Assembly (NCBI GenBank): GCA_964501335.1
Contig: CAZCTC010000010.1
Coordinates: 64,001-128,000 of the forward strand
Length of the DNA stretch: 64,000 nt
Source: an uncultured Anaerolineales bacterium
GTDB taxonomy: Bacteria > Chloroflexota > Anaerolineae > B4-G1 > SLSP01
Reading direction: 5' to 3'
The notes under the pieces are model-generated. The model did not search any database and was not told the DNA's origin. It saw only the letters and a program-made list of their open reading frames with translations. Both the position numbers and the translations under genes were made by a program. The stretch's first letter is position 1. Every line of letters begins with the position of its first letter. Of the stretch, positions 1-51,179 are shown piece by piece.

Positions 1-1
1 G

Positions 2-958
2 GCCGGCTTTGAACTGTCGGACAGCTATCTGGATCTGCATGCCAAGGGGATGTGCTATCGGGACATCTCGTTCGGCAACGTTTTCTTCGATCCGACGAAC
101 GGCGATACCCTGATCTGCGACAACGACAATGTGGCCGTAGACAACCAGGAGCACTCCGGGGTGTTGGGGACGCCGCGGTTTATGGCGCCCGAAATTGTGC
201 GAGGGGAGGCGAAGCCCAGCACGCAGACGGATCTTTTCTCGCTGGCGGTTTTGTTGTTCTACATGTTGATGGTCCACCATCCATTGGAAGGCAAGAAGGA
301 GAGCGAGATCCGCTGTCTGGATCTGCCGGCGATGAATAAGTTGTACGGTTCCGAACCGATTTTCATCTACGATCCCAACGACGACAGCAATCGGCCGGTG
401 CCGGGGGTGCATGACAATGTGCTGGCTTTCTGGCCGCTCTATCCGTCGTTCCTGCGCGATCTTTTTATCAAGGCGTTCACGGTGGGGTTGAAAGATCCGC
501 TGGCGCGGGTGCGTGAGAGTGAGTGGCGGTCGACGATGGTACGGCTACGCGATTCAATCTATTATTGCGCGAACTGCAATGCCGAGAATTTCTACGATGT
601 AGAAGCGATGAAGGCTTCCGGCGGCAACCCCGGCAAGTGCTGGTCGTGCGGTAAGGATCTCGTGCTGACGCCCCGGTTGAAGCTGGATCGGGATATTGTC
701 ATGTTGAACCATGATACGAAGCTCTATCCGCACCATGTGGATACGCAACGGCTGTACGATTTCACTCAGGCGCAGGCTGAGGTGAATCGCCATCCGACCA
801 ATCCCAATATCTGGGGGTTAAAGAATCTCAGCCAGGAGAAATGGGTGATCACTACGCCGGACGGCACCGTGAAAGATGTTGATCCGGGGCGCAGTGTGAC
901 GTTGACTGTGGGAACACGGATCAATTTCGGTAAACGTGAGGGAGAGATCAGAGTCTAA
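2..958 (+). CDS. Ser/Thr protein kinase, C-terminal part with a zinc ribbon; the 5' end lies outside the window
   Basis: The reading frame is open from base 2. Catalytic-loop-like YRDISFGNVFFD and activation-segment GTPRFMAPE motifs are present. C-terminal CANCNAENF...CWSCGKD zinc ribbon. Confidence 0.7.
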   Translation, partial: AGFELSDSYLDLHAKGMCYRDISFGNVFFDPTNGDTLICDNDNVAVDNQEHSGVLGTPRFMAPEIVRGEAKPSTQTDLFSLAVLLFYMLMVHHPLEGKKESEIRCLDLPAMNKLYGSEPIFIYDPNDDSNRPVPGVHDNVLAFWPLYPSFLRDLFIKAFTVGLKDPLARVRESEWRSTMVRLRDSIYYCANCNAENFYDVEAMKASGGNPGKCWSCGKDLVLTPRLKLDRDIVMLNHDTKLYPHHVDTQRLYDFTQAQAEVNRHPTNPNIWGLKNLSQEKWVITTPDGTVKDVDPGRSVTLTVGTRINFGKREGEIRV

Positions 959-995
959 CGGAAAACGTTAGAGCGTTTCAACGTTAAGGAGAAGC

Positions 996-2282
996 ATGAA
1001 TCGTACCCGTTGGATTTTTGTAGGCATTGTGGCGCTGGCATTGTTGATTATTGGAGGATCGGTGTTGGTGCAGATGCTTTCGGGAGGCACCCCGGGGACT
1101 ACGGTTCCGGGCACGACGCCTCAGGCGATTGCAACTGTTGAACAACCCGATGCGGTGACGGTGCGGGTCCTGACGGCCCTGCCGGTAGAGCCCTGGGTGC
1201 GCCAGGCGGCTGAGAAATTCAACGCCAGCAACCCGACTGTGGACGGCAGTACCACGACGATCAAGGTCGAAGTGGTGGGGATGGATGGGCTTTCGGCGTT
1301 GGGGCGCTGGGACAGCAATGATTTCGGGGCGCTGCCGGCGGACAAGCGACCGGAGGATCTGACGGCTGAGGAAAAGGCGGCGCTGGCGAAATTCCCCACC
1401 GTCTGGATTCCCGATAACCGTTATCTGGTGGAACTGGCCAATGCTTCATACAAGGAGCGGTTGGGCCGGGATGTTTTCCTGACCGATGGTGAGTACCGGG
1501 CCAAGCCCATTGCGATCAGCCTCTTTACCTGGGGCATTTATGAGAGTCGGGCGAAGGTCTTGCAGGGCCATTTTGGGGACATCACCTGGGGTACCATCCA
1601 CGATGCGGCGATCGCGCCGGGCGGCTGGCCGGAACTGGGCGGGGATGCGGGATGGGGCTACTTCAAACTGGTGGTTCCCAATCCCAGCAAGAATGTGGGC
1701 GGTCTTTCGGCCATGGTGGCGGCAGCCGGTGAGTATTATAGCCGGACGGAGATCACCGTCCAGGATACGACCGACGCCGGTTTCCAGAAATGGCTGAAGG
1801 AATTGATGAGCTCGGGCACGGCCGTGGGGAGCGCCAGTGCCTATACTGCGCAAGATTTTGCGTTGTTTGGGTACAGCGTGGGCGACGGCGGTCAGTTGCT
1901 GGAGAGCGATCTGTTGCAAAATATGGAAGGGATTGTGACGCGCTGGGAAGATCCCCTGCGGCTCTATTATCCTCGTTATGTGACCTGGTTTGACTTCCCG
2001 TTTACCGTCTGGATGGGGCCGGAGACTTCGGCGGTGGAAAAGAATGCCGCGTTGCAGTTTGAGCGCTATCTGTTGGCCGATGAGCAGCAGAAGGCGGCGC
2101 TGGCCTATGGTTTACGCCCGGCGAATCCTGCCATTCCCCTGGATGCCACTCCGGAAAGCCTTTTCAGCAAATGGAAGGACCGGGGAGTTCAGATGGTGGT
2201 GCCGAGAGCCGACGCGATGCGCAGTCCCAACCGCGATGTGTTGCTGGCGATGCTGCGTTGGTTCGAACTGAACGTGAAGTAA
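996..2282 (+). CDS. membrane-anchored protein with a periplasmic solute-binding-like fold; paralogue of the N-terminal half of the next gene
   Basis: 428-aa ORF with an RBS-like aaggag upstream and an N-terminal TM helix (WIFVGIVALALLIIGGSVLV). Its fold-level similarity to the 2298-4094 product includes the segments GGWPELGGDAGWGYFKLVVPNP and LSAMVAAAGEYY. Confidence 0.6.
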   Translation: MNRTRWIFVGIVALALLIIGGSVLVQMLSGGTPGTTVPGTTPQAIATVEQPDAVTVRVLTALPVEPWVRQAAEKFNASNPTVDGSTTTIKVEVVGMDGLSALGRWDSNDFGALPADKRPEDLTAEEKAALAKFPTVWIPDNRYLVELANASYKERLGRDVFLTDGEYRAKPIAISLFTWGIYESRAKVLQGHFGDITWGTIHDAAIAPGGWPELGGDAGWGYFKLVVPNPSKNVGGLSAMVAAAGEYYSRTEITVQDTTDAGFQKWLKELMSSGTAVGSASAYTAQDFALFGYSVGDGGQLLESDLLQNMEGIVTRWEDPLRLYYPRYVTWFDFPFTVWMGPETSAVEKNAALQFERYLLADEQQKAALAYGLRPANPAIPLDATPESLFSKWKDRGVQMVVPRADAMRSPNRDVLLAMLRWFELNVK

Positions 2283-2297
2283 CGAGGTGATGTCATC

Positions 2298-4094
2298 ATG
2301 GTGAATGAGACACGCAGGTACGAGACTCCTCCCAAGGAGCCCAGCGGAAGTCTGGTGCCCTGGGCGGTTCTCATCGCGGGGGCGGTGGTGTTGCTCTGTG
2401 TCTGCGGCGGCATGGCGCTTCTTTTTAATTTCGGTTCGAGTGCCTGGAATGCTCTGCAAACTGCAGGGGCCGATAATACGCCGACTCCGGTGGGGCAAAG
2501 CTGGTCGACGGAAAGTGCCGAGCTGACGGTGGCTGTGGCGCCGGGAATGGCTCCGACTTTTCAGAAGCTGGCGGACGATTTCAACGCTCAGCAGAATAAG
2601 ACGCCGGACGGGGAAGTGATGACCGTCAAAGTCGTCGTGCTGGCGCCCGATCAGATGGTGGAGCAGAGTGTGGACAGGCCGGCTTTCCAGGCCGTGGCGC
2701 CCGACAGCAGTATCTGGCTGGCGCGGATCGAGCAGCGCTGGATCGCTACGCAGGGATTGACCGACACGGCTGAAAGTTCGCTGATCCCGATCAGCGATCG
2801 GCGGGTGGGGATGCCGGTGCGCTATGCGGTAAGCCCGGTGGTGATTGCGGCCTGGGAAGAGGTGGCGCGGGAGTTGGGCTGGCCGGAGACGGTGGGCTGG
2901 CGGCGGATTCAGCAGCGAGCCACCGAAGATCCCAATTTCAAGTGGAACCATCCGAGCACCGGTCAGGCGAGCGGTCTGTTGGCGACGCTGGCGGAATTCT
3001 ATGCCGGCGCCGGGGTGACGCGCGATTTGACGGCGGAACTGGCGCAGAAGCAGGAGACGCTGGACTATGTGCGCGCGGTGGAAGGGACCATCCGTTTCTA
3101 CGGCGAAGGCGAGAGCGTCATCATCGAGCATCTGGAGTCGGAAGGCCGGGGATTCCTGGATGCCTTTGCGACTCAGGAGCAGGTGGTGCTGGCCTGGAAT
3201 CAGAAGCACCCCGATCAGAAGCTGGTGGCGATCTATCCGGCGGAAGGGACCTTGTGGACCGACCATCCGCTGGCGCTGTTGGAGCTGGGGGCGGAGGGTG
3301 AGACGCGGGTAAGCGACAACCAGCGTTTGACTTTCCAGGAACTGGCGGCCTATCTTACCTCGGTGGATGTGCAGAAGCAGTTGCTGGCGGCGGGGTATCG
3401 GCCGGCCGATCTGAGCCTGCGGCTCGACGGCGAGGGCAGTCCCTTTGCCGGCACCAATGCGGTGGACTGGCGGCAGCCGCAGACGACCTTGCAGATCCCG
3501 GGGCCGGATGTCGTCGATGTGGTGATGAATGTCTGGTGGTATACCAAGCGGCCGACCAATGTCATTCTGGTGGTCGATACCAGCGGCAGTATGGAAGGTA
3601 ACAAGATCGCCCGGACCCGTGAGGCGTTGTTGGCTTTTGTGAATCAGATTCAAGGGCCGCGGGACCGGGTGGGCATTCTGGAATTCAGCAATGAGATCAA
3701 GCTGGAAGTGCCGTTGACGGAGATGACGGCGGAGAATCGTGAGCGGCTGTCACAGCAGATCTCGAATATGCGGTCCGACGGGGACACGGCGATGATCGAT
3801 GCCGTGTTGCGGGCGCGTCAGACCCTGGAAGAGAGCGGGGATCCCGAAGCGATCAATGCGATTGTGGTGATGACCGACGGGCAGGAGAATTCCAGCCGCG
3901 CCGACTTGAACGATCTTCAGACGGCTTTTGGTGCCAATCAGGAAAAGCGGGTGGTGATCTTTACGATTGCTTTCGGCAGCGATGCCGATGAGAAATTGTT
4001 GAAGAATATCGCCGAATTGGGCGACGGGCAGTTCCGTCGGGCCACTGAGATGGATATCCAAGAGCTGTACAAGGTCATTTCGACTTACTTCTAA
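2298..4094 (+). CDS. membrane-anchored solute-binding-like protein with a C-terminal von Willebrand factor A (vWA) domain
   Basis: 598 aa with an N-terminal TM helix. The vWA MIDAS motif is VILVVDTSGSMEG, followed by DGDTAMIDAV and VVMTDGQENSS. 15-nt gap to the upstream gene. Confidence 0.75.
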   Translation: MVNETRRYETPPKEPSGSLVPWAVLIAGAVVLLCVCGGMALLFNFGSSAWNALQTAGADNTPTPVGQSWSTESAELTVAVAPGMAPTFQKLADDFNAQQNKTPDGEVMTVKVVVLAPDQMVEQSVDRPAFQAVAPDSSIWLARIEQRWIATQGLTDTAESSLIPISDRRVGMPVRYAVSPVVIAAWEEVARELGWPETVGWRRIQQRATEDPNFKWNHPSTGQASGLLATLAEFYAGAGVTRDLTAELAQKQETLDYVRAVEGTIRFYGEGESVIIEHLESEGRGFLDAFATQEQVVLAWNQKHPDQKLVAIYPAEGTLWTDHPLALLELGAEGETRVSDNQRLTFQELAAYLTSVDVQKQLLAAGYRPADLSLRLDGEGSPFAGTNAVDWRQPQTTLQIPGPDVVDVVMNVWWYTKRPTNVILVVDTSGSMEGNKIARTREALLAFVNQIQGPRDRVGILEFSNEIKLEVPLTEMTAENRERLSQQISNMRSDGDTAMIDAVLRARQTLEESGDPEAINAIVVMTDGQENSSRADLNDLQTAFGANQEKRVVIFTIAFGSDADEKLLKNIAELGDGQFRRATEMDIQELYKVISTYF

Positions 4095-4939
4095 TGACCG
4101 GAGGGTCGATGGCTTCCAATCGGGCCGCAGCAGTCAAAAAAGCACAGGGGGTGGCGATTCAGTATGCCTTCTTCCGTTGGGAGAGCGCGCTGGTGCTGGC
4201 CGGGACGTTGGTGGTGACCTTTTTCTTTTGGAACAATGCGAGTTCGCCGCTGCCTTCCTGGGGCTGGCCCGTGATAGGAGCGCTGGCGCTGGCTGCGTTG
4301 GTCTATTCCAGCCTGACCGATCCGGATACCAATGCGCGGTTGCTGTGGGAGGTGCTGCAAGGGCCAGTGGATCCTAAGAAGATTCAGGAGTCGTCGTTAC
4401 GCGATTCGCTGCGGGAAGCGTTGACGTTGCAACAGCGTTTTGAACTCGAGGTTCAACGTCAAAAGAATGCGGCCGTGCGGAGCTGGTTGAATGAACGTGC
4501 CGAAGAGGTCGATAGCTGGACCCAGGCTTTTGCGGCGCTGATCTGGGATCTGGACCGCGACCGGCAGGATCCCCGGATGAAGGATGCGCAGCAACGGGCG
4601 GCGGAGGCGATCGAGACGGTGGTTTCACGCCGGCGCTTTGAGCGGAATCCGCAGGCGCAGCAGCGGCTGAATGAATCGATGGAAAAACTGGGCAAGCAAT
4701 GGGAAGCATTGCGCCAGCTGGGGGGCCATCTGGCCCGCGATGAGGCGCTGTTGATATCCAATCTGACAGTGCTGAAGGAACTTTCCGACCGGATCGTGGC
4801 CGTCGAAGCGGCAGACGTGGAAGGTGGGGCAGCCGATGCGCTGAGGATGAAACTGGTGGCGCAGATTCAAGATGTGGAGTCACGGCTGGCCAATCTGACA
4901 ACGCTGGTGGGAATGATAGATTTTGGAGGAGATGCCTGA
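4094..4939 (+). CDS. hypothetical membrane protein with a long coiled-coil region
   Basis: 281 aa. The start overlaps the vWA gene stop (ATGA). Two hydrophobic helices are followed by Q/E/R-rich heptad-like sequence. Confidence 0.5.
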   Translation: MTGGSMASNRAAAVKKAQGVAIQYAFFRWESALVLAGTLVVTFFFWNNASSPLPSWGWPVIGALALAALVYSSLTDPDTNARLLWEVLQGPVDPKKIQESSLRDSLREALTLQQRFELEVQRQKNAAVRSWLNERAEEVDSWTQAFAALIWDLDRDRQDPRMKDAQQRAAEAIETVVSRRRFERNPQAQQRLNESMEKLGKQWEALRQLGGHLARDEALLISNLTVLKELSDRIVAVEAADVEGGAADALRMKLVAQIQDVESRLANLTTLVGMIDFGGDA

Positions 4940-4942
4940 ACC

Positions 4943-6100
4943 ATGAAAAATAAGTTCCTGGCCCTGATTTTAATTGTCAGTCTGCTGCTGGCGGGCTGCA
5001 ATGGTGGCAAAAATACCCCCGGCACTTCGGGAACGACGCCGACCAAAGGCGATGTGCTGGTGTTTGTGGCAGTGCCGTTGAGCGGTTTCCAGGCCAACGG
5101 TGGTCAGACGGTGTTGGGGGGGGTCCGGTTGGCGGCCGAGGAGATCAATCGCTCCGGCGGTCTGCTGGGCTATCGTGTCGTCGTCCAGGCGCTGGATGAT
5201 GAGTCCGACAGCGATGTGGCGGTGGCGAACGTCGAGAAGATCAAAGAGGCGTTGCAGGGGAACGTCAAGGTGATCGCTGTGATCGGCCACCTGAACAGCG
5301 GTCAGACGCTGGCGGCGATGGAGCTTTACAAGGATCTGCCCTTGATTGTGATTACGCCGACGGCATCGGAGCAGAGTTTGACGCAGAAGGGGTATACCAA
5401 CTTCTTCCGGGTCAATGCGAGCGATGCGATCCAGGCGGCGGTGGATGCGCAGTTCCTGGCGGAAAAGCTGGGGGCCCGGCGTGTGGCGGTGGTTTTCAAC
5501 AATACGGAGTATGGTCGTGGTCTGGGGGCGCAGCTGACGGCGGCGCTGAAGTCCAAGGGGGCTGAGGCGGTGACGCAGATCGAGGTCGAGGAAGGTCAGA
5601 GCCATTATGAGAAAGAAGTGGCTGAAATCCAGGCCGCGAACCCGGATGCGATTTTCTACGCCGGTTATGAAATTGAGACGCCCTATCTGCGGGCGGCTTT
5701 GATCGGGGCCGGAGTGAAGGTGCCGATGCTGGCGAGCGACGGGGCTTTCCTTTCGGCGACGATCGATGAATCCAGTGGGACGGCGGAGGGGCTCTATGTG
5801 AGTGCTTTTGCGCCGAGCCCGAAGAATGTGGCCGATGCCAGCTGGTTCGCGGCCTATCAGGCGGTGGAGTATCGCAATCCCGAGACCTATTCGGTGAACG
5901 GGTATGTGGCGATGCAGGTGCTGGCGGCCGGTGTGAAGAATGCCAATTCGCTGGATTCCAAGGCGGTGGCGGCGGCGCTGCTCCAGAAGGGGATTCCGAC
6001 GTTGCTTTCGGAACTGAGTTACGATGCGAACGGCGATCTGAAGAATCCGCAGATCTGGATCTATCAGGTGAAGAACGAGGCGTTCGAGCAGGTGCAGTAG
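4943..6100 (+). CDS. branched-chain amino acid ABC transporter substrate-binding lipoprotein (LivJ/LivK family)
   Basis: 385 aa. Lipoprotein signal LLLAGCNGG. Type-I periplasmic binding fold motifs VIAVIGHLNSGQT and PLIVITPTASE. Confidence 0.8.
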   Translation: MKNKFLALILIVSLLLAGCNGGKNTPGTSGTTPTKGDVLVFVAVPLSGFQANGGQTVLGGVRLAAEEINRSGGLLGYRVVVQALDDESDSDVAVANVEKIKEALQGNVKVIAVIGHLNSGQTLAAMELYKDLPLIVITPTASEQSLTQKGYTNFFRVNASDAIQAAVDAQFLAEKLGARRVAVVFNNTEYGRGLGAQLTAALKSKGAEAVTQIEVEEGQSHYEKEVAEIQAANPDAIFYAGYEIETPYLRAALIGAGVKVPMLASDGAFLSATIDESSGTAEGLYVSAFAPSPKNVADASWFAAYQAVEYRNPETYSVNGYVAMQVLAAGVKNANSLDSKAVAAALLQKGIPTLLSELSYDANGDLKNPQIWIYQVKNEAFEQVQ

Positions 6101-6123: not shown

Positions 6124-6162
6124 GGGAGGCTCCTGAGAGGGGGCCTCCTTTTTTGTTTATCT
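6124..6162. terminator. rho-independent-type hairpin with a T-tract between convergent genes
   Basis: ggaggctcc-tgagaggg-ggcctcc followed by ttttttgttt. Confidence 0.55.
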
Positions 6163-6913
6163 ACCAGCTGAGTGTTTCTCCATCGGCGGGGATGGCAACG
6201 TGGTCGATCAGGCCGGCCCGGGTAAGCTGGTCGGCGAGGGGGCGGCGTTGCAACCGGCAATGGTTGACGGCTTCCATGTGGACGGCGACGATGTGGGCCT
6301 GGGGCGCGGCGCGGCCGACATTGATCACGTCGGCGGCGGTCATGGTGATGGGAGCGCCGATGTTGAATTGGGCGGCGCCGGCGTTGAGGACGATGATGTC
6401 GGGGTGATATTGCTCAAGGACGGCCTGGACGGTGGCGTTCCAGACGGTGTCTCCGGCGATGTAGAGGAGGGGTTCCCGGGGGGGGTTGATGATGAAGCCG
6501 GAGACGGCCCCCATGAGGTTGCCGAGGAGGCCGCGGCCATGTTTTCCGCCCGTGCGGGTGAAGTGGAGACCGTTCACTTCGGCGGAGGTTGCGATGGGCA
6601 AGACGTGGGTGAAGTTTGCTTTTTGGAAGGAGGGCTGATCGGGGGGCTGGCAGATGAGGGGGAGCTGTTTGGGGAGCCGGGCTGCGGCAACGGCATCGAA
6701 ATGATCGAAGTGGGAATGGGTGGCGACGATCATATCGGGATGCAGCAGTTCGTCGATAGGGCAGGGGAGCGGGACCGTCGGGTTGGTGGCGGCGGATGTT
6801 CCAAAGGTCAGGGATTGCAGGGTGTGGGCTTCAGCCAGCAATGGATCGATGAGGATGGATTGGCCGGCCAGTTCGATTTGCAGGGTGGCATGGCGGATCA
6901 GACGTAGTTTCAT
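6161..6913 (-). CDS. MBL-fold metallo-hydrolase
   Basis: The HxHxDH motif is ATHSHFDHFD. The start is placed at the internal Met (MKLRLIRHATL), the typical MBL N-terminus; the annotated ORF extends to 6988. Confidence 0.75.
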   Translation of the reverse strand: MKLRLIRHATLQIELAGQSILIDPLLAEAHTLQSLTFGTSAATNPTVPLPCPIDELLHPDMIVATHSHFDHFDAVAAARLPKQLPLICQPPDQPSFQKANFTHVLPIATSAEVNGLHFTRTGGKHGRGLLGNLMGAVSGFIINPPREPLLYIAGDTVWNATVQAVLEQYHPDIIVLNAGAAQFNIGAPITMTAADVINVGRAAPQAHIVAVHMEAVNHCRLQRRPLADQLTRAGLIDHVAIPADGETLSW

Positions 6914-7073
6914 GGGCCTCCTGGGATGGTTGGGAAATTGGATGTGGAAGGTATACCTCATTTTGCGGGAGTGGCAAGGGAGCGGCACCTGGAAGGATGA
7001 AAAAGAGATTTCACCGCAGAGGCACAGAGAACACAGAGAAGAAGAGAGGAGATTTTTCTGAATTTTCTCTGTA

Positions 7074-7386
7074 AAAAGGGCTATGTTTTGGCGGGGCCCT
7101 CACCCCCTGCCCCCTCTCCCCTATTTTGTTGTTAAGTAGCGACGCGATTCGAGTGGATGCGTTTTGGGGTATAGCTGCGAGCGATGCGGGAGGGAGAGGG
7201 GGGAAGAGCGTGCCGCCGGGGCGGTTCTGAAAAAGGGCTATGTTTTGGCGCGGCCCTCACCCCCTGCCCCCTCTCCCCTATTTTGTTGTTAAGTAGCGAC
7301 GCGATTCGAGTGGATGCGTTTTGGGGTATAGCTGCGAGCGATGCGGGAGGGAGAGGGGGGAAGAGCGTGCCGCCGGGGCGGTTCTG
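7074..7386. repeat. two near-identical 157-bp direct tandem units
   Basis: Units span 7074-7230 and 7231-7387 and differ at one position. Each contains a C-rich tract (ccctcaccccctgccccctctcccc) and a complementary G-rich tract (gggagggagaggggggaagag). Confidence 0.85.
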
Positions 7387-7560
7387 AAAAAGGGCTATGT
7401 TTTCGGCGGCTTCAGAAAGCCGCCGAAAACATAAACAAAAAAAACTCTCTCCCGATCCAGCGCGGTGCATTTTAGGGGGAAAGCGTCTTATGCGGGGAGG
7501 GGCGATTTTCCAAAGAGGTGCGTTGCATCTTTGAGAAACGTTGATTTATTTTGAGTAAGT
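7387..7560. repeat. dispersed intergenic repeat element, copy A (hairpin 7397-7432 plus conserved right arm)
   Basis: Perfect palindrome atgttttcggcggc-ttcagaaa-gccgccgaaaacat, followed by aaacaaaaaaaactctctcccgatccagcgcgg...ggggga. Homologous to the copies at 28826-29150, 32075-32180 and 51180-51290. Confidence 0.8.
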
Positions 7561-7648: not shown

Positions 7649-8356
7649 ATGGCGGGGAAATTGCGATGGTTGGGCGTGGCGTTTGTCGAGTTTATCACCG
7701 GGGACGGCCGGACGATCCTTTTCGATCCGTGGACGAAGACGGACGGCAGTCCGACCTGCCCGCTGGAGACGGAGGAGATCCGGAAGGCCGATCTGATTCT
7801 GGTGAGCCACGATCATTTCGATCATATCGCTTCGGCGGCGAAGTTGTGTAAACAGACGGGGGCGCTGCTGGGCGGCCCGGATGAGACGATGAAGCGGTTG
7901 ATGCGGGATGAGGGTTTGGAGCCGGAGCAGATTGTCAATCATGGCGCGGGGTATATTGTGGGCGGCGGCACGGTGTTGCCGTGGGCGAAGGTGGTTTCCA
8001 CGCCGGCGTATCATACGTCGAATACTTCGGTGCCGGTCGGGACCATTGTCAAGGCGGTGGATGGGACGACGATCTATCATGCCGGGGATACCAGTCTGAC
8101 CGGCGAGATGGAGATCTATGCGCGGCTTTATCCGTTGGATGTGGCGATTTTGCCGATTTTCGGGATTGCGACGATGGATGCACTTCAGGCGACGGAGGCT
8201 GTGCGGCTGATGAAGCCGCGGAAGGTGATGCCGATCCATTTCGATTTCTGTGCGGAGCCGGAGGCGGTGCTGGCGGAGTTTGTGGCTCTGTGCCGGGAGC
8301 GGGCTCCCGAGGTGGAGATTCTGGTGCCGGCGCCGGGGAAGTATTTTGAGCTTTAA
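7649..8356 (+). CDS. MBL-fold metal-dependent hydrolase
   Basis: 235 aa. LILVSHDHFDHIAS motif. RBS aaggagg lies upstream of the ATG. Confidence 0.75.
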   Translation: MAGKLRWLGVAFVEFITGDGRTILFDPWTKTDGSPTCPLETEEIRKADLILVSHDHFDHIASAAKLCKQTGALLGGPDETMKRLMRDEGLEPEQIVNHGAGYIVGGGTVLPWAKVVSTPAYHTSNTSVPVGTIVKAVDGTTIYHAGDTSLTGEMEIYARLYPLDVAILPIFGIATMDALQATEAVRLMKPRKVMPIHFDFCAEPEAVLAEFVALCRERAPEVEILVPAPGKYFEL

Positions 8357-8370
8357 GAGGGTTTTTTTAT

Positions 8371-8410
8371 CTATGTTTTCGCGCGCTTCAGAAAGCGCGC
8401 GAAAACATAG
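8371..8410. terminator. hairpin of the same family as the dispersed repeat, acting as a terminator after the MBL gene
   Basis: ctatgttttcgcgcgc-ttcagaaa-gcgcgcgaaaacatag followed by atattttt. Confidence 0.55.
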
Positions 8411-8478
8411 ATATTTTTCCCCCTTATTTTCTGGGGGACCCATAGCCAGTATTTTGACTGAGAGGCAGGGCGGTAAGG

Positions 8479-10981: not shown

Positions 10982-11130
10982 GGTTCCTCCTTATTTATTC
11001 GTTTTTTCGGCCGAAGGCCGAAAAAACGCTACTTCTGATTTTTGATACTGCCCTGCACCTGAAGCTTTGTTTTTCAGATACGACGCGCTGGATGGGGGGA
11101 GAGTTATTTTGTGTATGGTTTTTTCTTTTT

Positions 11131-13446
11131 TTACTCGGCGTGAAGGGCGATGGCCGGGTCGAGTCGGGCGGCGGTGCGGGCAGGCAGGATTCCGGCGACC
11201 ATGCCTAAGACGATGCTGAAGATGAAGGCGCCCAGGACCAGGCGGGGGGAGAGGTTGAGCATGGTGAGGCCCAGGGAGGCCTGTAGCTGGATGTTGACCA
11301 GGATGACGGTGATCCAGGAGACGACCAGGCCGACGGCGCCGCCCAGGGCGCCGAGTTTGGCAGCGTCGAGGAGCACTTCGGCCAGGATGTCACCGTCATC
11401 GGCACCGACGGCTTTTTTCAGGCCGATTTCCCAGGTGCGCTCTTTGACGGAAATGACCATGGTATTGATGACGGAGACGGCTCCGACAAAGACGGCGATA
11501 GAGAAGATCCCGGCCATGACGGCGATCAGGGTCATGAAGACCTGCTGCAGGTTGCCGAAGATATCGGTGACGGTCTGGACCTGGAGGCCGGGCAGCTCTT
11601 CGCTGATCAGTTTTTTGAAGGATTCCGGCGAGACTCCGGGCTGAGCGCGGACGGAGAGGGCGCCGAGCTCGCTGTTGGCATCGGTCACGGAGACCAGGCC
11701 GTTGATCGACATGTAAGCCGCGGTGTTGTAGCCGCCAAAGTCGTAGGGGACAAAGTCCCAGATGCCGACGATGGTGATTTCTCGTTCTTTCTGTCCTACC
11801 CGGATGCGATCGCCGACGTGTAGATTGTTGACCTGGGCGAGGGAGGCGCCGACCATCATTTCGGTAGCGCTGCCGGGGGCATATTTCCGTCCGGAGGCGA
11901 CCCGGATATCCATCGGCATGTCGAAGCTGAAGTTGCCCAGTTCTGAATTGTTGGCCCAGATTTGGACTTCTTTCATCTCTTTGTCGTCGGTGCCGAAATA
12001 GATCGGGACCTGGCGGGAGTTGAAGCGCATCACTTCGGCGACGCCGGGGAAGTTGCGCAGGACGCGGGCGGTGGATTCGCCCATCGGGACGCCGGCTTTC
12101 TCAGGCTGCAAGAAGAGCATGTCCTGGGTGCCGTTGGTGACATCGTTGAGGGCGGTGTTCATTCCTTCGGCGAGGCTGCCCAGAGCGGCGATGGCGAAGA
12201 TGCCGATGGCGATCCCGCCGGCGGTGAGGATGGGGCGGAGGTTGCGGCGCAGAAGGTAGAAGAGGCGTTTGAGGCCGTGGGCGGCATAGCCGCCGGTGCT
12301 GCCGCCGCGCAGGGCGACTACCGGATCAAGCCGGGCGGCCTGTAAGGCGGGATAAATTCCGGCCAGGACTCCCATGACGGTGCTGAAGGCGACGACGCCG
12401 ACGGCCAGTCGAGGGGTCAGCAGAAAGAGTTTCGAGCCTATCTGGGCGATCAGGGCCTGGTTGGCGAGCATACCGCAGAGGGCTCCTACCAGCATGCCCG
12501 ACAAGCCTCCCAGCCCGGCGATCAGGACGGCTTCGGCGATCACTTCGGAGAGGATGTGGCTGTCTTCTGCGCCCAGGGCTTTTTTCAGGCCGATTTCACG
12601 GCGGCGTTCGTGGACGCTGACGGCCATGGTGTTGACGATGGTGAAGGTGCCGATCAACAGGGAGAGAATCCCACTGGCGCCGATGATGAGGGTGAAGATC
12701 AGGACCTGCTGGCGGGCCTGTTCGACCATGGCTTTGGGCGAGGTAGCGGTGATATCGCTGACTTCGGTTTCGATCTTTTTAGCGACGGCTTCCAGATCGG
12801 CTCCCGGTTGGGGGACGACGCTGACGACCTGAGCTCCGCCGGCTATGAAGACATCCCGGCCCAGCAGGTCTTCGGCGGCTTCGTAGCTGATGTAGGCGGT
12901 GCGGCCACCGACGGTCGGTTCGGATTCCCAGATGCCGACGATTTTGAAGGCGCGGTCGCGGATTTCCAGCAGTTGGCCGACTTCCAGGTGGCGGGCCTGG
13001 GCAAGGCCCCAGGAGACGACCGTTTCGGTCCGGCTGCCGGGATCGGGAATACGGCCGGCATAGAGTTTCAGTCCGCTCATCGGGGGCTCAAATTCCAGGC
13101 CGGGGATGTCGGAGCGGGTGCCGATAAAGGATTCCGGATTGACGGAGATCGTGGCGACATTTTCTTCCGGTTTGGCGATGTTGGCGACGATGGAAACGGT
13201 CAGTCCACGCACTCCGGGAATCCGGCGGATGACACTCATGGCCGATTCGGAGATCGGTTTCGAGTAGTCTTTGGTCATAACAGAGATGCGGGTTTGGGCA
13301 TCATTTCCGGTGAGTTGAATGAGGTCTTCCATCTGTTCCGTGATACCGCCGACCATGGTGACGGCGAAGATGCCGACCGCCACCGCAAACATAGTCAGGG
13401 CCGTGCGCATTTTGCGCCGCAGCAGATAGCGGATAATTTCGTTCAT
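11131..13446 (-). CDS. ABC transporter permease with duplicated FtsX/MacB-type domains
   Basis: Two repeats of TM helix + large periplasmic domain + 3-TM FtsX bundle. The start is assigned at MNEIIRYLLRRKMR, the typical FtsX N-terminus; the annotated ORF extends to 13542. Confidence 0.8.
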   Translation of the reverse strand: MNEIIRYLLRRKMRTALTMFAVAVGIFAVTMVGGITEQMEDLIQLTGNDAQTRISVMTKDYSKPISESAMSVIRRIPGVRGLTVSIVANIAKPEENVATISVNPESFIGTRSDIPGLEFEPPMSGLKLYAGRIPDPGSRTETVVSWGLAQARHLEVGQLLEIRDRAFKIVGIWESEPTVGGRTAYISYEAAEDLLGRDVFIAGGAQVVSVVPQPGADLEAVAKKIETEVSDITATSPKAMVEQARQQVLIFTLIIGASGILSLLIGTFTIVNTMAVSVHERRREIGLKKALGAEDSHILSEVIAEAVLIAGLGGLSGMLVGALCGMLANQALIAQIGSKLFLLTPRLAVGVVAFSTVMGVLAGIYPALQAARLDPVVALRGGSTGGYAAHGLKRLFYLLRRNLRPILTAGGIAIGIFAIAALGSLAEGMNTALNDVTNGTQDMLFLQPEKAGVPMGESTARVLRNFPGVAEVMRFNSRQVPIYFGTDDKEMKEVQIWANNSELGNFSFDMPMDIRVASGRKYAPGSATEMMVGASLAQVNNLHVGDRIRVGQKEREITIVGIWDFVPYDFGGYNTAAYMSINGLVSVTDANSELGALSVRAQPGVSPESFKKLISEELPGLQVQTVTDIFGNLQQVFMTLIAVMAGIFSIAVFVGAVSVINTMVISVKERTWEIGLKKAVGADDGDILAEVLLDAAKLGALGGAVGLVVSWITVILVNIQLQASLGLTMLNLSPRLVLGAFIFSIVLGMVAGILPARTAARLDPAIALHAE

Positions 13447-25323: not shown

Positions 25324-25350
25324 GTGGGGGTATTAAAAAAGGAGATAGGG

Positions 25351-25770
25351 ATGGAACGGAATGAGAAAAAGATTAAACGTCCTTTTTTGCGGAAACGCTG
25401 GGCTTTGATTTCCGGTCTGGCGCTGGCTTTTTCGGCAGCCTGTGCCGTGCCGGTAACCTGTTATACTCCTATGCCGTCAACGATTGAGCCGTCAGCGACG
25501 CCGACCCAAACGCCGACTCCCACGCCTACGCTTTTTTTCGTCTGTTATACGCCGACGCCTTCGCTGCAACCGATTGATACGTTGACGCCAACCTGTTATA
25601 CGGCTACTCCGATAGCGACTCCCACGCCAGTTTTGATTCCGCCGCCCGAGGCGACCTTCACGCCGATTCCGGCCACGCCTACGCCGATGCCGCAGACATT
25701 GGATGAATTGCGGGAGAAGTTGCTGGTCGAGGGGCGGTTTCCGGAGGGTGTGGTTAAGGAATTGAAGTAG
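25351..25770 (+). CDS. secreted Pro/Thr-rich Cys-Tyr-motif peptide with the conserved C-terminal EGRFP motif (precursor-like, type C)
   Basis: RBS ggag 7 nt upstream. Signal-peptide-like N-terminus. Three CYT(P/A) motifs. C-terminus LDELREKLLVEGRFPEGVVKELK. Confidence 0.6.
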   Translation: MERNEKKIKRPFLRKRWALISGLALAFSAACAVPVTCYTPMPSTIEPSATPTQTPTPTPTLFFVCYTPTPSLQPIDTLTPTCYTATPIATPTPVLIPPPEATFTPIPATPTPMPQTLDELREKLLVEGRFPEGVVKELK

Positions 25771-25783
25771 TTGTGGAGGTTAT

Positions 25784-26128
25784 ATGGAACTCGGAAACAG
25801 AAATCGAGGACGGTTGTCGCGCAAGTTGAAATTGTTGGCGGCTTCCGGGATTGCGTTGGGCCTGGCGGCCCGTTGTGCGGCCGAGCCTACTCCTGAAGTG
25901 CTCTGTTATGCTCCGGTTGCGCCGACTCCGACTGAAACGCCCATGGTGATGTGTTATGAACCCACCATGTCGCCCATTGAGGAGACGCCCACGATCACGC
26001 CAACGGCAACGCTTACCGGTTCTCCGGAAATCACCATTACACCAACTTTGGAATCCCGGAGCACTTTAATGGAACAATTATTGACTGAAGGACGTTTTCC
26101 AAAATGTGTGGCGGAGGAATTGAAATAA
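25784..26128 (+). CDS. secreted Cys-Tyr-motif peptide, type A (copy 1)
   Basis: RBS ggagg. N-terminus MELGNRNRGRLSRKLKLLAASGIALGLAA. Motifs LCYAP and MCYEP. C-terminus RSTLMEQLLTEGRFPKCVAEELK. Confidence 0.6.
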   Translation: MELGNRNRGRLSRKLKLLAASGIALGLAARCAAEPTPEVLCYAPVAPTPTETPMVMCYEPTMSPIEETPTITPTATLTGSPEITITPTLESRSTLMEQLLTEGRFPKCVAEELK

Positions 26129-26154
26129 TTAAATTAATCTAAAGGGATTGATGT

Positions 26155-26547
26155 ATGGGCCAGAAAAAGAGAAGGTTATCGCGTAAGGCGATGTTGGTGG
26201 TGGTTTCTGGAATGGCCGTGGGAATGGCGGCAAGTTATAATGCGGGAGTTGCCATGCCGCCGCCCACGCCTACGCCCACTGCCATTTATTTGACCCCGGC
26301 GGCACTTCCGAACGAAAGCACTGTTTTGCCGCGTTTTCATCCACGCGACATAAGCTGTTATATAGTAATTGATGTAACCCCAGAAGAGAGCTGGATCTCG
26401 TCTCCGGATGGAGCTACCGCGACGCCGACTCCCACACCTACTCCGACTTTGATAGGGAGTTCGGGACCGACCTCTCTGGATCTTTTACGGGAGCAGTTGC
26501 TGGCAGAAGGGCGATTTCCGGATGAGGTGGCGAAGGAATTGAAATAG
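26155..26547 (+). CDS. secreted Cys-Tyr-motif peptide, type B (copy 1)
   Basis: N-terminus MGQKKRRLSRKAMLVVVSGMAVGMAAS. Motif SCYIVIDV. C-terminus LDLLREQLLAEGRFPDEVAKELK. Confidence 0.6.
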   Translation: MGQKKRRLSRKAMLVVVSGMAVGMAASYNAGVAMPPPTPTPTAIYLTPAALPNESTVLPRFHPRDISCYIVIDVTPEESWISSPDGATATPTPTPTPTLIGSSGPTSLDLLREQLLAEGRFPDEVAKELK

Positions 26548-26637
26548 CGAAAATCCTTTTCGGGTGATTTGTTTTTAGTGTCCCACAAAGGGATTTTGCC
26601 CGGTAAGAAGCGACGCGCTGGAGGGAGGAAGGGGCAT

Positions 26638-26982
26638 ATGGAAAGCAAAAACAGAAATCGAGGCCGGTTGTCGCGTAAGTTGAAATTGTTGGTGGCTTCC
26701 GGGATTGCGTTAGGGTTGGCGGCGCGCTGTGTGGCTGAGCCTACGCCGGAAGTGACCTGTTATGCAGTGGCGGCGCCGACGCCGACTGAAACGCCGATGG
26801 TGATGTGTTATGAACCCACCATGCCGCCCATGGAGGAGACGCCCACGATCACGCCGACGGCAACGCTTACCGGTTCTCCGGAGATCACCATAACACCAAA
26901 TGTGGAATCCCGGAGCACTTTAATGGAACAATTATTGACTGAAGGACGTTTTCCAGAATGTGTGGCGGAGGAATTGAAGTAA
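26638..26982 (+). CDS. secreted Cys-Tyr-motif peptide, type A (copy 2)
   Basis: Around 90% nucleotide identity to 25784-26128. RBS ggaggaagg. Motifs TCYAV and MCYEP. C-terminus ...EGRFPECVAEELK. Confidence 0.6.
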   Translation: MESKNRNRGRLSRKLKLLVASGIALGLAARCVAEPTPEVTCYAVAAPTPTETPMVMCYEPTMPPMEETPTITPTATLTGSPEITITPNVESRSTLMEQLLTEGRFPECVAEELK

Positions 26983-27008
26983 TTAAATTAATCGAAAAGG
27001 ATTGATGT

Positions 27009-27428
27009 ATGGGCCAGAAAAAGATAAAGTTATCGCGTAAGGCGATGTTGGTGGTGGTTTCCGGAATAGCCGTGGGAATGGCGGCAAGTTATAATGCGGG
27101 AGTTGCTATGCCGTCGCCCGCGTCCATATTCACGCCCACGTCCACGCCAACTCCCTCTTTCGTTCATTTGCTTTCGAACGGAATTGCCGTTTCGTCGCCC
27201 CATCGTCCAATCGGCGTGAGGTGTTATCTTGTAATTGATGTAACTGAGGTAACTCCAGAAGAAAGTGGGATCTGGTATCCTGATGGAGTTTTCGCGACGC
27301 CGACTCCAACGCCGACTCCCACTCCGACTTTGATAGGGAGTTCGGGGCCGACCTCACTGGATCTTCTACGGGAACAGTTGCTGGCGGAAGGGCGTTTCCC
27401 GGATGCGGTGGCGAAGGAGTTGAAGTAA
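27009..27428 (+). CDS. secreted Cys-Tyr-motif peptide, type B (copy 2)
   Basis: Paralogue of 26155-26547. Motif RCYLVIDV. C-terminus LDLLREQLLAEGRFPDAVAKELK. Confidence 0.6.
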   Translation: MGQKKIKLSRKAMLVVVSGIAVGMAASYNAGVAMPSPASIFTPTSTPTPSFVHLLSNGIAVSSPHRPIGVRCYLVIDVTEVTPEESGIWYPDGVFATPTPTPTPTPTLIGSSGPTSLDLLREQLLAEGRFPDAVAKELK

Positions 27429-27433
27429 GAAGC

Positions 27434-27703
27434 ATGATAAAAAAGCGGAGTAACAAAATCTCCGGGGGGCCGCGCCGGAAGCCGGGGGCGGATTTTTTGG
27501 TCCAGATGTTTCAGGAGTTACACGATGCTGAGGTACGTTCTACTCCGGATTTGAGCATCTGTTACGAGATCCAGGCTGTGGAACCTGATCCGGTAACCGG
27601 GGCAGCTCAACCGGAGAAATCCCGGCAGCTTTTGCGAAGCCGGTTGGTCAAAACCAACCGCTTTCCTGCCGGTGTGGAGGGTGAGTTGGGGGAGGAACGA
27701 TGA
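27434..27703 (+). CDS. sixth family member: no signal peptide, degenerate C-terminal motif, translationally coupled to the radical SAM gene
   Basis: 89 aa. Motif SICYEIQAV is related to the type B SCYIVIDV. C-terminus LLRSRLVKTNRFPAGVEGELGE. Its stop overlaps the rSAM start (ATGA). Confidence 0.5.
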   Translation: MIKKRSNKISGGPRRKPGADFLVQMFQELHDAEVRSTPDLSICYEIQAVEPDPVTGAAQPEKSRQLLRSRLVKTNRFPAGVEGELGEER

Positions 27704-28815
27704 AAAGAAAAGAAGGAAAGCGGACCTGGCTTTCGCGGTGGCGGCAGGTGCTGGCTCAGGTAGAGATGCGGCAGGCGCAAAAGAGAGAGCCGGAACGGGC
27801 TTCTTATTTTATTCTGGAGTTGACGGCGCGTTGTAACCAGGATTGCCGGTATTGTTATAATGTCTGGAAGGCGCGCGAGGGGATGGTCCAACGGGAGATG
27901 ACGACCGAAGAGTGGTGCACGTTGATCGGTCGGTTACAGGACGAGATGGGCTGTCGGCAGGTGACTTTTTCGGGCGGGGAGCCGCTGCTGCGAGAGGATT
28001 TCCGTGAGATCCTGGCCTTCTGTCACCGGCGAGGGTTGGAGAGTATTGTGATTAGCAATGGCCGGTATCTGGACCAGGAGATGCTGGAATTCTGTCTGGC
28101 CCACGGGGTGAAGATGTTTGAAGTGACGCTGCTGGGTTCCAATGCGGCGACCCATGACGGATTGACGCGGGTGCCGGGCAGTTGGGAGCGGGCTCTTTCC
28201 GCGATGACCCGGCTTTACAAGGCCGGGGCTACCTGGTGCGGTGTTTTTGTGGCGACGAGTGAAAATATCGGGCAGGTGCGGGAGACGGTGGAGATGATGA
28301 TTGCGCTGGGGGCGAAGGTCATTATGTTTAACCGGTTCAATCCTGGCGGAGAGGGGGCCCGGCATCGCGATTTGATGCCGGCACCGGATGATGTGCAGAA
28401 GGCGTTGCGGGTTGTGGATGAGCTGGCTGTGGCGTATAATTTCCCTGCAACGGCTTCGGTGCCGGTGATGCCCTGTCTGGTCGATCTACACGGCTTTCAA
28501 CGGGTGCAATTTGGGTTTTGTGCGGCGGGGCGGGCGGGTTCTTATCCCACCATCGGGCCGGATGGCCGGGTGCGCCCTTGCAATCACAGTGCGACCATTC
28601 TGGGGGATTTTCATCAACAGTCGATGCAGGAGATGTTGGAGGGGCCTGCGTTGCGGGCTTTTACGGCCGTGGTGCCTGAGGTTTGCCGGCCCTGTCCGGG
28701 GCTGGATCAATGCCGGGCGGGGTGCAGGGCGGCTGCAGAGGTCTGTTTTGGTTCATTGGAAGAGCCGGAACCCTGGTTGAAGGCTAATTTAGAGCGATTG
28801 CCGCCTATGGTTTAG
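27700..28815 (+). CDS. radical SAM enzyme with a C-terminal SPASM-type auxiliary Fe-S cluster domain (peptide/protein maturase type)
   Basis: CX3CX2C motif CNQDCRYC near the N-terminus. SAM-binding GGEPLL. C-terminal Cys-rich block CAAGRAG...CNHS...CRPCPGLDQCRAGCRAAA. 371 aa. Confidence 0.85.
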   Translation: MKRKEGKRTWLSRWRQVLAQVEMRQAQKREPERASYFILELTARCNQDCRYCYNVWKAREGMVQREMTTEEWCTLIGRLQDEMGCRQVTFSGGEPLLREDFREILAFCHRRGLESIVISNGRYLDQEMLEFCLAHGVKMFEVTLLGSNAATHDGLTRVPGSWERALSAMTRLYKAGATWCGVFVATSENIGQVRETVEMMIALGAKVIMFNRFNPGGEGARHRDLMPAPDDVQKALRVVDELAVAYNFPATASVPVMPCLVDLHGFQRVQFGFCAAGRAGSYPTIGPDGRVRPCNHSATILGDFHQQSMQEMLEGPALRAFTAVVPEVCRPCPGLDQCRAGCRAAAEVCFGSLEEPEPWLKANLERLPPMV

Positions 28816-28825
28816 GCACATTGAG

Positions 28826-29150
28826 GGATGAAAAAGGAATTTCACCACAGAGGCGCAGAGATCACAGAGAAGAAGAAGAGAGGAGATTTTCTGAAACGTA
28901 AAAAGTAATGATCTGTGGGTTTGGTGCAACGGTGAAGGGAGGGGGTAAGCGGATGTTGCCGGGATGCTTTTGGAAAAAGCCATGTTTTTGCGCGCATTCT
29001 GATGCGCGCAAAAACATAAATAAAAAACTCTCTCTGCCTATCCAGCGCGGCGTATTGTAAGGGGAGAGTGCCATTTACGGGTGAGGAGGATTTTTCCAGA
29101 CAGGTGTAACGCACTCGGATCTTGCAATGATGGGCGGTTTGCCTTCAGAT
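28826..29150. repeat. dispersed intergenic repeat element, copy B (left arm, hairpin 28982-29017, right arm)
   Basis: Left arm ggatgaaaaaggaatttcaccacagaggcgcagagatcacagagaagaagaagagaggagattttctgaa matches 6995-7062. Hairpin atgtttttgcgcgc-attctgat-gcgcgcaaaaacat. Right arm aaataaaaaactctctctgcctatccagcgcgg. Confidence 0.8.
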
Positions 29151-32037: not shown

Positions 32038-32074
32038 GAAGGCGGCACTCTTAAGTTCGAGGGCGTCGCCGGGA

Positions 32075-32180
32075 CGGTTCTGGAAAAAGCCATGTTTTGG
32101 TGCGCCTTCTGAGGCGCACCAAAACATCAACAAAAAAATGCTCTCCTTCCATCCTGTGATGTGCTTCTTACGAGAAAAGT
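32075..32180. repeat. dispersed intergenic repeat element, copy C (hairpin 32092-32127)
   Basis: ggttctggaaaaagcc-atgttttggtgcgcc-ttctga-ggcgcaccaaaacat-caacaaaaaaatgctctcc... Confidence 0.75.
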
Positions 32181-32181
32181 G

Positions 32182-32679
32182 TCAGGGGATGGGGGGGCAA
32201 TAACGATCCCAGTTTTGGAGCAGGTAGCCCCGAATGCCGGTTTTAGGATTGTAAGTAGGGTAACGTTGTTTGAACTGCAGCTCGGCTTCCGGGACGGTGG
32301 CGGCAGTGATCGCGCCGCAATAGACGAGGTAGAGCAGGGCAATGGAGGGCGAGCGGGATTCGCCCTGATTGCAGTGGACCAGAACTTTATGTCCTTCGGT
32401 CAGGCCGGCGTGGATAAATTCCAGGGCGGCATCGATGACTGCGGCATGGAAATATTTGGGATCATCGGCATCGACCAGATTGAGGATCAGCCGGTTATCC
32501 CGGTAGGCCAGATAGTATTCCGGGTGATTTTTATCGGCGGCGGAGCCTTTGTAGCCCAGCGCCTGGCGGTGATAGGGTTCCTTGCAGGCCTGGACGACTT
32601 TCCAGCCGGGCTGACCGGCGACCTCTTGTTCGTAAGCTTCCTGATTCCCCACATAGAGATTGGGATAGATCTCGATCAT
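32182..32679 (-). CDS. dual-specificity / protein-tyrosine phosphatase
   Basis: P-loop CX5R motif VHCNQGESRS. Confidence 0.8.
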   Translation of the reverse strand: MIEIYPNLYVGNQEAYEQEVAGQPGWKVVQACKEPYHRQALGYKGSAADKNHPEYYLAYRDNRLILNLVDADDPKYFHAAVIDAALEFIHAGLTEGHKVLVHCNQGESRSPSIALLYLVYCGAITAATVPEAELQFKQRYPTYNPKTGIRGYLLQNWDRYCPPIP

Positions 32680-34515: not shown

Positions 34516-34534
34516 GAGCGACTTTTCCATAGGG

Positions 34535-34568
34535 ATTGGGCGCGCCTTTTTAAAAGGCGCGCCCAATC
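34535..34568. terminator. perfectly palindromic, bidirectional terminator-like hairpin
   Basis: gattgggcgcgcc-tttttaaaaa-ggcgcgcccaatc. Confidence 0.55.
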
Positions 34569-51145: not shown

Positions 51146-51179
51146 TAATCGACCTGGGCCGTTAGCGCGGAAAAGCGTG

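Follow-up and report, generated by a model that had tools for sequence, protein, structure and literature searches.

What is the hairpin that recurs between the genes of a 64,000-nucleotide stretch of an uncultured Anaerolineales bacterium of the Chloroflexota (contig CAZCTC010000010.1, positions 64,001 to 128,000; hereafter the window), and is it there to serve the neighboring genes or as a repeat in its own right? The copies belong to a dispersed intergenic family that is previously undescribed and has so far been seen in only one lineage, an uncultured Anaerolineae-like (Chloroflexota) genome. This family is likely a high-copy interspersed mosaic repeat of the kind represented by the repetitive extragenic palindromes (REPs), the bacterial interspersed mosaic elements (BIMEs), and SPRITE, with a terminator-like complete unit and with spreading at the DNA level. 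The Chloroflexota family is new; the general kind—small interspersed bacterial repeats with terminator-like hairpins—is already known.

The full unit is approximately 128 nt long and directional, as judged by the alignment of its copies. On the active strand, it consists of a conserved module of ~70 nt, the U-rich tract UUUUUUGUUU, a hairpin, and a T-run. Written from 5′ to 3′ (the minus strand for the four full units A, B, C, and D of the window), it reads (T)TTTTAGCG-TCCCGCA...GTAAGAAACGACGCGCTGGATGG-GNAGAGAGAG-TTTTTTGTTT-ATGTTTT-[GC core]-TTCAGAAA-[GC core′]-AAAACAT-GGGC-TTTTT. The hairpin is 18 to 20 bp long and features conserved A/T feet (AUGUUUU and AAAACAU), a variable GC core of ~7 bp, and a conserved UCAGAA loop. 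The T-run follows the CAT foot at a distance of 2 to 5 nt, and its side with respect to the 5′ module is constant across 18/18 full units and the short form at 8373; T-runs flank many units at both ends. The mean pairwise identity amounts to 0.65 for the 5′ module and 0.63 to 0.71 for the GC core, compared with 0.80 to 0.89 for the feet and 0.87 for the U-rich tract. A hypervariable GC core was considered and rejected, because the core has diverged only as much as the flanking module while its pairing was kept.

The 5′ module contains a GGA motif, and its core, ...GUAAGAAACGACGCGCUGGAUGG..., is followed by a purine-rich run. This module is conserved as sequence rather than as a fold: RNAalifold predicts no structure for it in 13 copies, and on neither strand do its folding energies fall below the means of shuffled sequences (z-scores near 0). 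Two helices proposed by hand were rejected, performing no better than shuffles or slid controls. Several other identities for parts of the unit were discarded as well: a conserved small open reading frame (ORF) from the ATG at the hairpin foot (frames and lengths differ among the translated copies), the module's TGGCAC as part of a sigma-54 motif, TGGCAC-N5-TTGC (no −12 element accompanies it), and, on anatomy, a CRISPR repeat and a retron noncoding RNA. No conserved promoter upstream of the unit and no outward promoter on the other strand were seen in the alignments by eye.

The size of the family was determined with a covariance model, R1, which was built from 13 copies and in which a full unit scores >100 bits. 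The census covered ~112 kb: the window, its flanks, and two further loci, L074 and L034. It yielded 18 full units and ~16 partial units or lone hairpins, all between ORFs, as are the perfect palindromes of 32 to 46 nt, of which at least 30 occur in the same DNA. The window carries the four full units A to D, all on the minus strand (Table 1); two full units in tandem and one lone hairpin lie within 9 kb to its left and three partial copies within 10 kb to its right, while L074 (20.9 kb) carries nine full and about six partial copies and L034 three full ones. The density in the sampled DNA is about one copy per 3 to 4 kb, and the 19 kb flanking the window, which were not selected for the element, show a similar value. 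The pattern ATGTTTT-N14-34-AAAACAT matches four times in the window, with 0.01 matches expected by chance; once the GC stem and an A-rich/CTCTC flank are also required, the pattern matches A, B, C, and D, with 0.00 expected.

A sequence-only reading of the window had listed five hairpins, and all five are in place; its count of at least five copies holds, with more in the window (those starting at 11000, 11042, 26572, 36537, and 51110). Its description of the stems as perfectly complementary has to be amended for D, which features a 5′ foot GTGTTTT and a perfect 13-bp stem with an 8-nt loop instead of eight complementary GC pairs. The copy described as hairpin-only at 8371-8410 is in fact a short-form unit, 8356-8426, which covers R1 model positions 59-128 and is oriented opposite to A to D. 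Unit A has a perfect 17-bp stem and a loop that is flipped relative to most copies.

The hairpin is maintained. Depending on whether 13 or up to 18 copies are compared, pairing is kept in 94 to 97% of cells, and 9 to 11 pairs have changed on both sides; among all 18 copies, the 20 pairs are 94.4% paired and 11 of them show two-sided changes. None of 500 shuffles reached the observed pairing or covariation, and sliding of the 3′ partner by one to three columns left a pairing of only 33 to 55%, or 33 to 54% where 18 copies were used. The compensatory stem changes reported by the earlier reading are therefore real. Within the core, ~155 cells are Watson–Crick pairs, 2 are U·G, and 2 are mismatches, and the changes are mostly CG-to-GC flips. 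A core that has diverged with its pairing kept calls for either selection on the folded strand or DNA-level copying between the arms. Covariation by itself is no proof of selection on RNA, since a nearly all Watson–Crick core with flips is also expected from palindrome-arm repair in DNA; of the earlier conclusion that covariation implies selection on the hairpin, at the RNA or DNA level, the maintenance stands, with arm repair as another process that fits. Perfect palindromes with differing GC cores make this family a natural test case for RNA selection versus templated arm repair.

That folding counts on one particular strand is indicated best by a U·G extension of the stem. Between the CAT foot and the T-run, four outer pairs (GUUU with GGGC) prolong the stem, and 56 of their 72 cells are paired. 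Among these 56, 38 are U·G or G·U—which would be A·C mismatches on the complementary strand—and one outer pair shows two GC-to-AU double changes. Two caveats go with these counts: the most constant pair, U·G in 18/18 copies, never varies and is uninformative on pairing, and a T-rich side facing a G-rich side yields U·G pairs from composition alone. The one-sided T-run and the extension that pairs only by U·G place the active strand of A to D on the minus strand. This corrects the earlier plus-strand reading of A and B as lying upstream of genes, and it puts C and D directly downstream of minus-strand genes. With module, U-rich tract, GC hairpin, and U-tract in that order, the unit has the form of a Rho-independent terminator; a GC-rich stem-loop directly before a U-tract, on the strand defined by the 5′ module, makes it a predicted terminator. 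A simple terminator consensus scan flags A on the minus strand and the 8373 copy on the plus strand.

The arrangement of the copies is that of a repeat. Units occur in both orientations and in tandem, truncated, and nested forms, and the parts—the 5′ module, two kinds of 3′ module, and "arm" repeats—are combined as in a mosaic. Tandem pairs are found at L072 3148/3288 and at L074 5961/6142, 11137/11306, and 12049/12248, with only 10 to 50 nt between one terminator and the next unit. In two arrays (window 7073-7386; L074 1825-2060), the repeat unit starts inside the hairpin loop; in the first of these, each of the 157-bp units attached to A repeats the 3′ half of the A hairpin and the sequence after it. 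Between A and L034_15, the stems are the same but the loop is flipped. The design T-run / GC stem / A-run also occurs in many lone perfect palindromes without the T tail, such as those at window positions 11000, 36537, and 51110 and at L074 8607 and 9280. The conclusion of the earlier reading that this is a dispersed intergenic repeat family rather than a set of gene-specific terminators is upheld by the common flanks and the antisense copies; its preference for a REP-like or terminator-like element over a promoter is likewise supported.

The left arm that A and B share belongs elsewhere. The sharing itself is real (62 nt, 87% identical, two copies only in the window), as are the ~100 bp in common to the right of the hairpin, but the arm is a separate repeat family of variable position. 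It consists of GATGAAAAAGAGATT...CACAGAG/CGCAGAG short direct repeats and occurs at window positions 6984-7070 and 28815-28890, at 5960-6075 of a further locus, L069, and at about 17880-17960 of L071; the L069 copy contains an internal inverted repeat of considerable length. Compared with A and B, L069 has the arm on the opposite side of the core, and in L071 it separates the hairpin from the conserved module. Being found on either side of the core and once inside a unit, the arm is an independent element and possibly mobile.

The position of the units relative to genes varies. The stop codon (32182-32184) of a minus-strand phosphatase gene, 32182-32679 (Pfam DSPc), marks the beginning of C; D lies 50 to 60 nt past the stop of the minus-strand ADC-family gene 51354-52097 (Pfam); and the plus-strand MBL-fold gene 7649-8356 (Pfam) ends in the stop codon at which the short form 8373 begins. 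B has a plus-strand gene on either side and is antisense to both; A occupies a divergent gap, on its active strand upstream of the minus-strand gene 6161-6913. The hairpin-less copy at 26572-26634 has a purine-rich end that leads directly into a small gene, whose ATG is at 26638. Counted manually over all loci, about 10 units are in sense and 5 or 6 in antisense orientation to the upstream gene, a weak bias. Within the window, 3/5 convergent gaps, 1/5 divergent gaps, and about 5/40 co-directional gaps are occupied (manual count, small numbers). The genes adjoining the copies are functionally unrelated.

The DNA examined has, in all probability, a single source. The window matches contigs of the JGI metagenome 3300022666 and of the Logan run SRR6476076, and a phosphoenolpyruvate-utilising enzyme encoded in it has its closest named homologs in Chloroflexi, Anaerolineae, and Ardenticatenaceae, at ~55 to 61% identity, so that the host ranks as a divergent, Anaerolineae-like bacterium of the Chloroflexota. 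L034 (CAZHTS010000137.1) and L069 (CAZHVY010000024.1) were recovered by a loose pattern scan of GTDB genomes; of the 68 loci in total, only these two were real, nearly all others being chance matches in AT-rich genomes. L069 carries the label "uncultured Geobacter" and is 100% identical to the 133.8-kb JGI contig L074, which comes from the same sample as the window; all named homologs of its methyltransferase are Anaerolineae or Chloroflexi (65 to 73% identity). The tetranucleotide signature correlates with that of the window at r = 0.93 for L074, r = 0.89 for L034, and within 0.89 to 0.93 for L069; the window's own flanks reach values as high as L074 and L034, whereas those of relatives amount to 0.61. 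Because L074 shares the sample of the window and the signatures of L074, L069, and L034 match it, all of this DNA probably comes from one genome or population. A spread across phyla, as the Geobacter label would have it, was rejected on the grounds of the 100% match, the Chloroflexi homologs, and the window-like tetranucleotides. The metagenome-assembled genome with L069, "uncultured Geobacter sp.", is a GTDB species representative; since the genes and the tetranucleotide signature of L069 are Anaerolineae-like, this contig is probably mis-binned there.

Searches outside this probable single genome did not find the family. R1 gave no match at E < 0.1 in 66 kb around the orthologous methyltransferase gene of two related Anaerolineae (~70% amino-acid identity). 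Nothing in the window reached the gathering threshold of Rfam, and relaxed thresholds returned only chance-level generic hairpin models (miRNA precursors). Two scans of metagenome contigs with specific patterns gave no match; these patterns match locally, and the collection evidently lacks the source sample. One scan of viral contigs and blastn against plasmids and phages were without a match as well. The multicopy sequences of Geobacter (PMC2700814) were considered and rejected as unrelated.

Under the reading as a terminator-bearing interspersed repeat, units would spread and rearrange in DNA through a candidate enzyme, through recombination, or through template switching at the palindrome. 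They would land in intergenic DNA in either orientation, build tandem arrays, and decay to truncated forms. In sense-oriented units, among them C, D, and 8373 along with many more, the upstream transcript would be ended or stabilised by the hairpin and U-tract. Pairing would be kept by selection on the folded strand, to which arm-to-arm copying in DNA may add. Several points weigh against this reading. The evidence for mobility, which the earlier reading had also proposed, is the distribution of the copies, so that mobility is something we infer; terminal inverted repeats are absent, a target-site duplication is not demonstrable, the available relatives (60 to 73% amino-acid identity) offer no empty site for comparison, and no Y1/HUH (RAYT, IS200) or other transposase is among the genes called in the ~112 kb. 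About a third of the loci are antisense to the flanking genes, and termination therefore cannot be the role of every copy. At L072 3087-3117 and L034 2050-2081, a separate hairpin stands between the gene and the unit. Terminator function alone does not account for how strongly the sequence of the unstructured 5′ module is conserved, nor for the conservation of the U-rich tract and of the loop. The density may be overestimated, L034 and L069 having been found through carrying the element, and the copies probably sample one genome.

The main competing explanation, unlikely but to be taken seriously, is a family of small-RNA genes, either free-standing or cut from 3′ untranslated regions. The module with GUAAGAAACGACGCGCUGGAUGG would then be a seed or a protein-binding platform, and the U-rich tract with the terminator a chaperone-binding 3′ end. 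Small RNAs are indeed typically laid out as a single-stranded conserved region, a U-rich tract, and a strong terminator; neither strand of the module is structured, the U·G pairs are strand-asymmetric, the U-rich tract and hairpin feet are the most conserved parts (0.87 to 0.89), and C begins exactly at a stop codon, with D a short distance past one. However, the similarity begins only a few bases before the module, with no common −35/−10 upstream (alignments inspected by eye), and tandem units leave no more than 10 to 50 nt between a terminator and the next unit. One copy per 3 to 4 kb far exceeds known small-RNA families, many copies are truncated, hairpin-less, nested, or antisense, and an Rfam match is lacking. 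A related proposal, quite doubtful in our estimate, takes the unstructured 5′ module as the working part: hundreds of transcripts would share one single-stranded end with GUAAGAAACGACGCGCUGGAUGG, then the U-rich tract and a highly stable terminator, and would jointly act as a genome-wide RNA regulon or as a sponge that binds an RNA-binding protein.

The family might also be a true REP, whose palindrome forms the single-stranded DNA hairpin that is spread by a RAYT (an IS200/IS605-type tyrosine transposase), with the other modules forming BIME-like mosaics. An extragenic palindrome of 32 to 38 nt at very high copy, single, clustered, or in mosaic with other motifs, is what such an element looks like, the nearly pure Watson–Crick core and the many lone palindromes of family design without a T-run agree with it, and GTAG-tagged REPs have been reported in Chloroflexi (PMC3733652). 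We regard this as improbable: the hairpin feet lack a GTAG or CGTC tag, no Y1 transposase was called in ~112 kb, and known REPs are imperfect, with bulges needed for cleavage, whereas the palindromes of this family are perfect. Hairpin and T-run geometry, together with several copies directly past stop codons (C, 8373), would suit ordinary gene-specific intrinsic terminators that are alike through shared constraints in the host; ~70 nt of common non-hairpin sequence at 65% identity, a conserved loop and feet, the antisense, divergent-gap, tandem, and truncated copies, and a family pattern with 0.00 matches expected by chance make this very improbable. Just as far-fetched is a cis-acting 5′ leader (an attenuator or riboswitch-like) that controls the downstream gene. 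Most copies lie downstream of or antisense to genes, the conserved module has no supported structure, and the adjoining genes share no function, although A precedes the gene 6161-6913 on its active strand, the L074 pair 12049/12248 precedes a co-directional gene, and the 26572 copy supplies the ribosome-binding region of a small gene.

If the interspersed-repeat reading holds, a density of about one copy per 3 to 4 kb means that the family must shape transcript ends genome-wide. Were the 5′ module the working part, this would be a genome-wide RNA regulon in a phylum, the Chloroflexota, where small-RNA biology is almost unknown; were the palindrome kept perfect by arm-to-arm copying in DNA, that would be a second novel point. 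The family also explains assembly breaks in this organism: JGI and Logan contigs end inside repeats or hairpins at window positions 7054, 7254, 7277, 7422, and 8401 (7254 and 7277 for JGI, 7054 and 7422 for Logan). The number of 157-bp units at 7073-7386 rests on the single assembly of the window for this reason. The family may also contribute to contigs landing in differently labelled bins, and R1 is usable as a marker for re-binning the contigs of this organism.

Table 1. Copies of the repeat family and attached repeats in the window
Feature	Position	Strand	Model score or remark
"Left arm" adjoining A, GATGAAAAAG...CACAGAG repeats	6984-7070		Separate repeat family D18
Two 157-bp tandem units attached to A	7073-7386	-	Repeat family D5, 99% identity
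Full unit A: 5′ module, U-rich tract, hairpin 7396-7433, T-run	7379-7506	-	R1 119 bits
Short form: GAGGG, U-rich tract, 21-bp hairpin 8368-8413, T-run	8356-8426	+	R1 65 bits
Lone perfect palindrome, T-run / GC stem / A-run design	11000-11028		
5′ module and U-rich tract, without hairpin	11042-11133	+	R1 49.8 bits
5′ module only	26572-26634	+	R1 38 bits
"Left arm" repeat adjoining B	28815-28890		
Full unit B, hairpin 28982-29017	28964-29091	-	R1 126.6 bits
Full unit C, hairpin 32092-32127	32074-32202	-	R1 108.5 bits
Lone hairpin of family design, between convergent genes	36537-36568		R1
Lone T4 / GC stem / A4 hairpin	51110-51145		Just past stop codon of 2867-aa ORF
Full unit D, hairpin 51193-51226	51174-51301	-	R1 123.7 bits

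Further repeats accompany the family. Some units are flanked, in inverted orientation, by tandem GTAGACAG octamers (up to four consecutive) and by a motif related to them, GTAGACAGTAGCAAGTAGACAG, at L074 300-330, 45-66, and 16150-16260 and at L034 255-310; both are absent from the window itself. In the 157-bp units (window 7100-7215 and again 7257-7372), the C-rich CCCTCACCCCCTGCCCCCTCTCCCC and the G-rich GGGAGGGAGAGGGGGG, ~95 nt apart, pair as the arms of a long hairpin, which gives weak Rfam matches to miRNA-precursor models. Palindromes of other design—a GC stem with an A/T center, or a 19-bp GC-rich stem—lie at window 34534-34568 and at L072 3087-3117 and 8137-8178; that at L072 3087, with TTTT after it, sits between a gene and two tandem units.

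The genes around the copies include some groups worth recording. Positions 1-6100 of the window and 1-10000 of L072 carry VWA, PP2C phosphatase, TerY_C, Ser/Thr kinase, and DUF5682 genes, a set that is TerY-phosphorylation-triad-like; it is followed by two divergent MBL-fold hydrolase genes, one on each side of copy A. At 25324-28815, five paralogous small genes (~114 to 148 aa) with Thr/Pro-rich repeats share a conserved C-terminal tail, the DNA of which reads ...GAAGGGCGTTTTCC..GTGGCGAAGGAATTGAAATAG; a radical SAM/SPASM enzyme gene (27700-28815) comes after them. This stretch looks like a precursor-plus-maturase cluster of the type known from ribosomally synthesized and post-translationally modified peptides. 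Two of the small genes have a hairpin-less copy between them, and B stands directly after the cluster. A single ORF of 2867 aa (42502-51105) ends 5 nt before the T4 / GC stem / A4 hairpin, with D coming next.

Among known systems, integron attC sites consist of R″/R′ core sites (RYYYAAC / GTTRRRY) in an imperfect palindrome with extrahelical bases and have an integrase nearby. They were rejected on inspection: the feet misfit the core sites, the stems are perfect, units occur in both orientations, there is no cassette array, and no integrase was called in the same-sample loci. With canonical Rho-independent terminators, the unit shares the GC-rich stem-loop directly before a U-tract on one strand. 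It differs from them by a stem of twice the usual length, the perfect palindrome, the conserved loop and feet, and the 70-nt upstream module, and about a third of the copies are not placed to end any gene. The MITEs (miniature inverted-repeat transposable elements) Correia/CREE, ERIC, RUP, and BOX are able to alter transcript ends, and the present units resemble them in being short, noncoding, high-copy, intergenic, and nesting. The unit is nevertheless no MITE in the strict sense, a MITE-like element being one option of the earlier reading, given the lack of terminal inverted repeats: its ends, 5′ TTTTTAGCG-TCCCGCA and 3′ CAT-GGGC-TTTTT, are not complementary, and its sole inverted repeat is the internal hairpin. 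No target-site duplication is demonstrable either; with T-runs at the two ends of many units, a duplicated T-run may be one.

REPs and BIMEs are high-copy extragenic palindromes of 20 to 40 bp that form mosaics with other motifs, lie mostly downstream of genes, and are thought to terminate or stabilise transcripts; a GTAG or CGTC tag at the palindrome end defines two REP superfamilies (PMC3733652). The short high-copy extragenic palindrome and the mosaic, clustered arrangement are common to them and to the family described here. In contrast, the feet of the latter read (T)ATGTTTT...AAAACAT(A) or T5-6...A5-6 with neither tag at the ends (CGTC is present within the 5′ module, not at the palindrome end), the palindromes are perfect with a GC core that varies between copies, and no RAYT gene was found in ~112 kb. 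The closest described element is the pneumococcal SPRITE, in which a U-rich tract comes after an 18-bp duplex whose ends carry AAAA/TTTT; it is enriched past genes and between convergent genes, is confined to one lineage, and has no known transposase or target-site duplication (PMC3049150). The likeness is one of architecture only—a long duplex, here of 18 to 20 pairs, and then a U-rich tract—while the phylum is unrelated and the sequence presumably so. In the present family, the A/T runs are ordered T4-stem-A4, the U-tract comes after a short G-rich spacer that pairs by U·G, and a conserved unstructured module of ~70 nt and a variable GC core are added. Tandem and antisense copies are frequent, and the sampled DNA carries about one copy per 3 to 4 kb, compared with 30 SPRITE copies per pneumococcal genome. 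If the reading as a terminator-bearing interspersed repeat holds, the Chloroflexota join the small set of lineages with terminator-built interspersed repeats, represented so far by SPRITE and some REPs.

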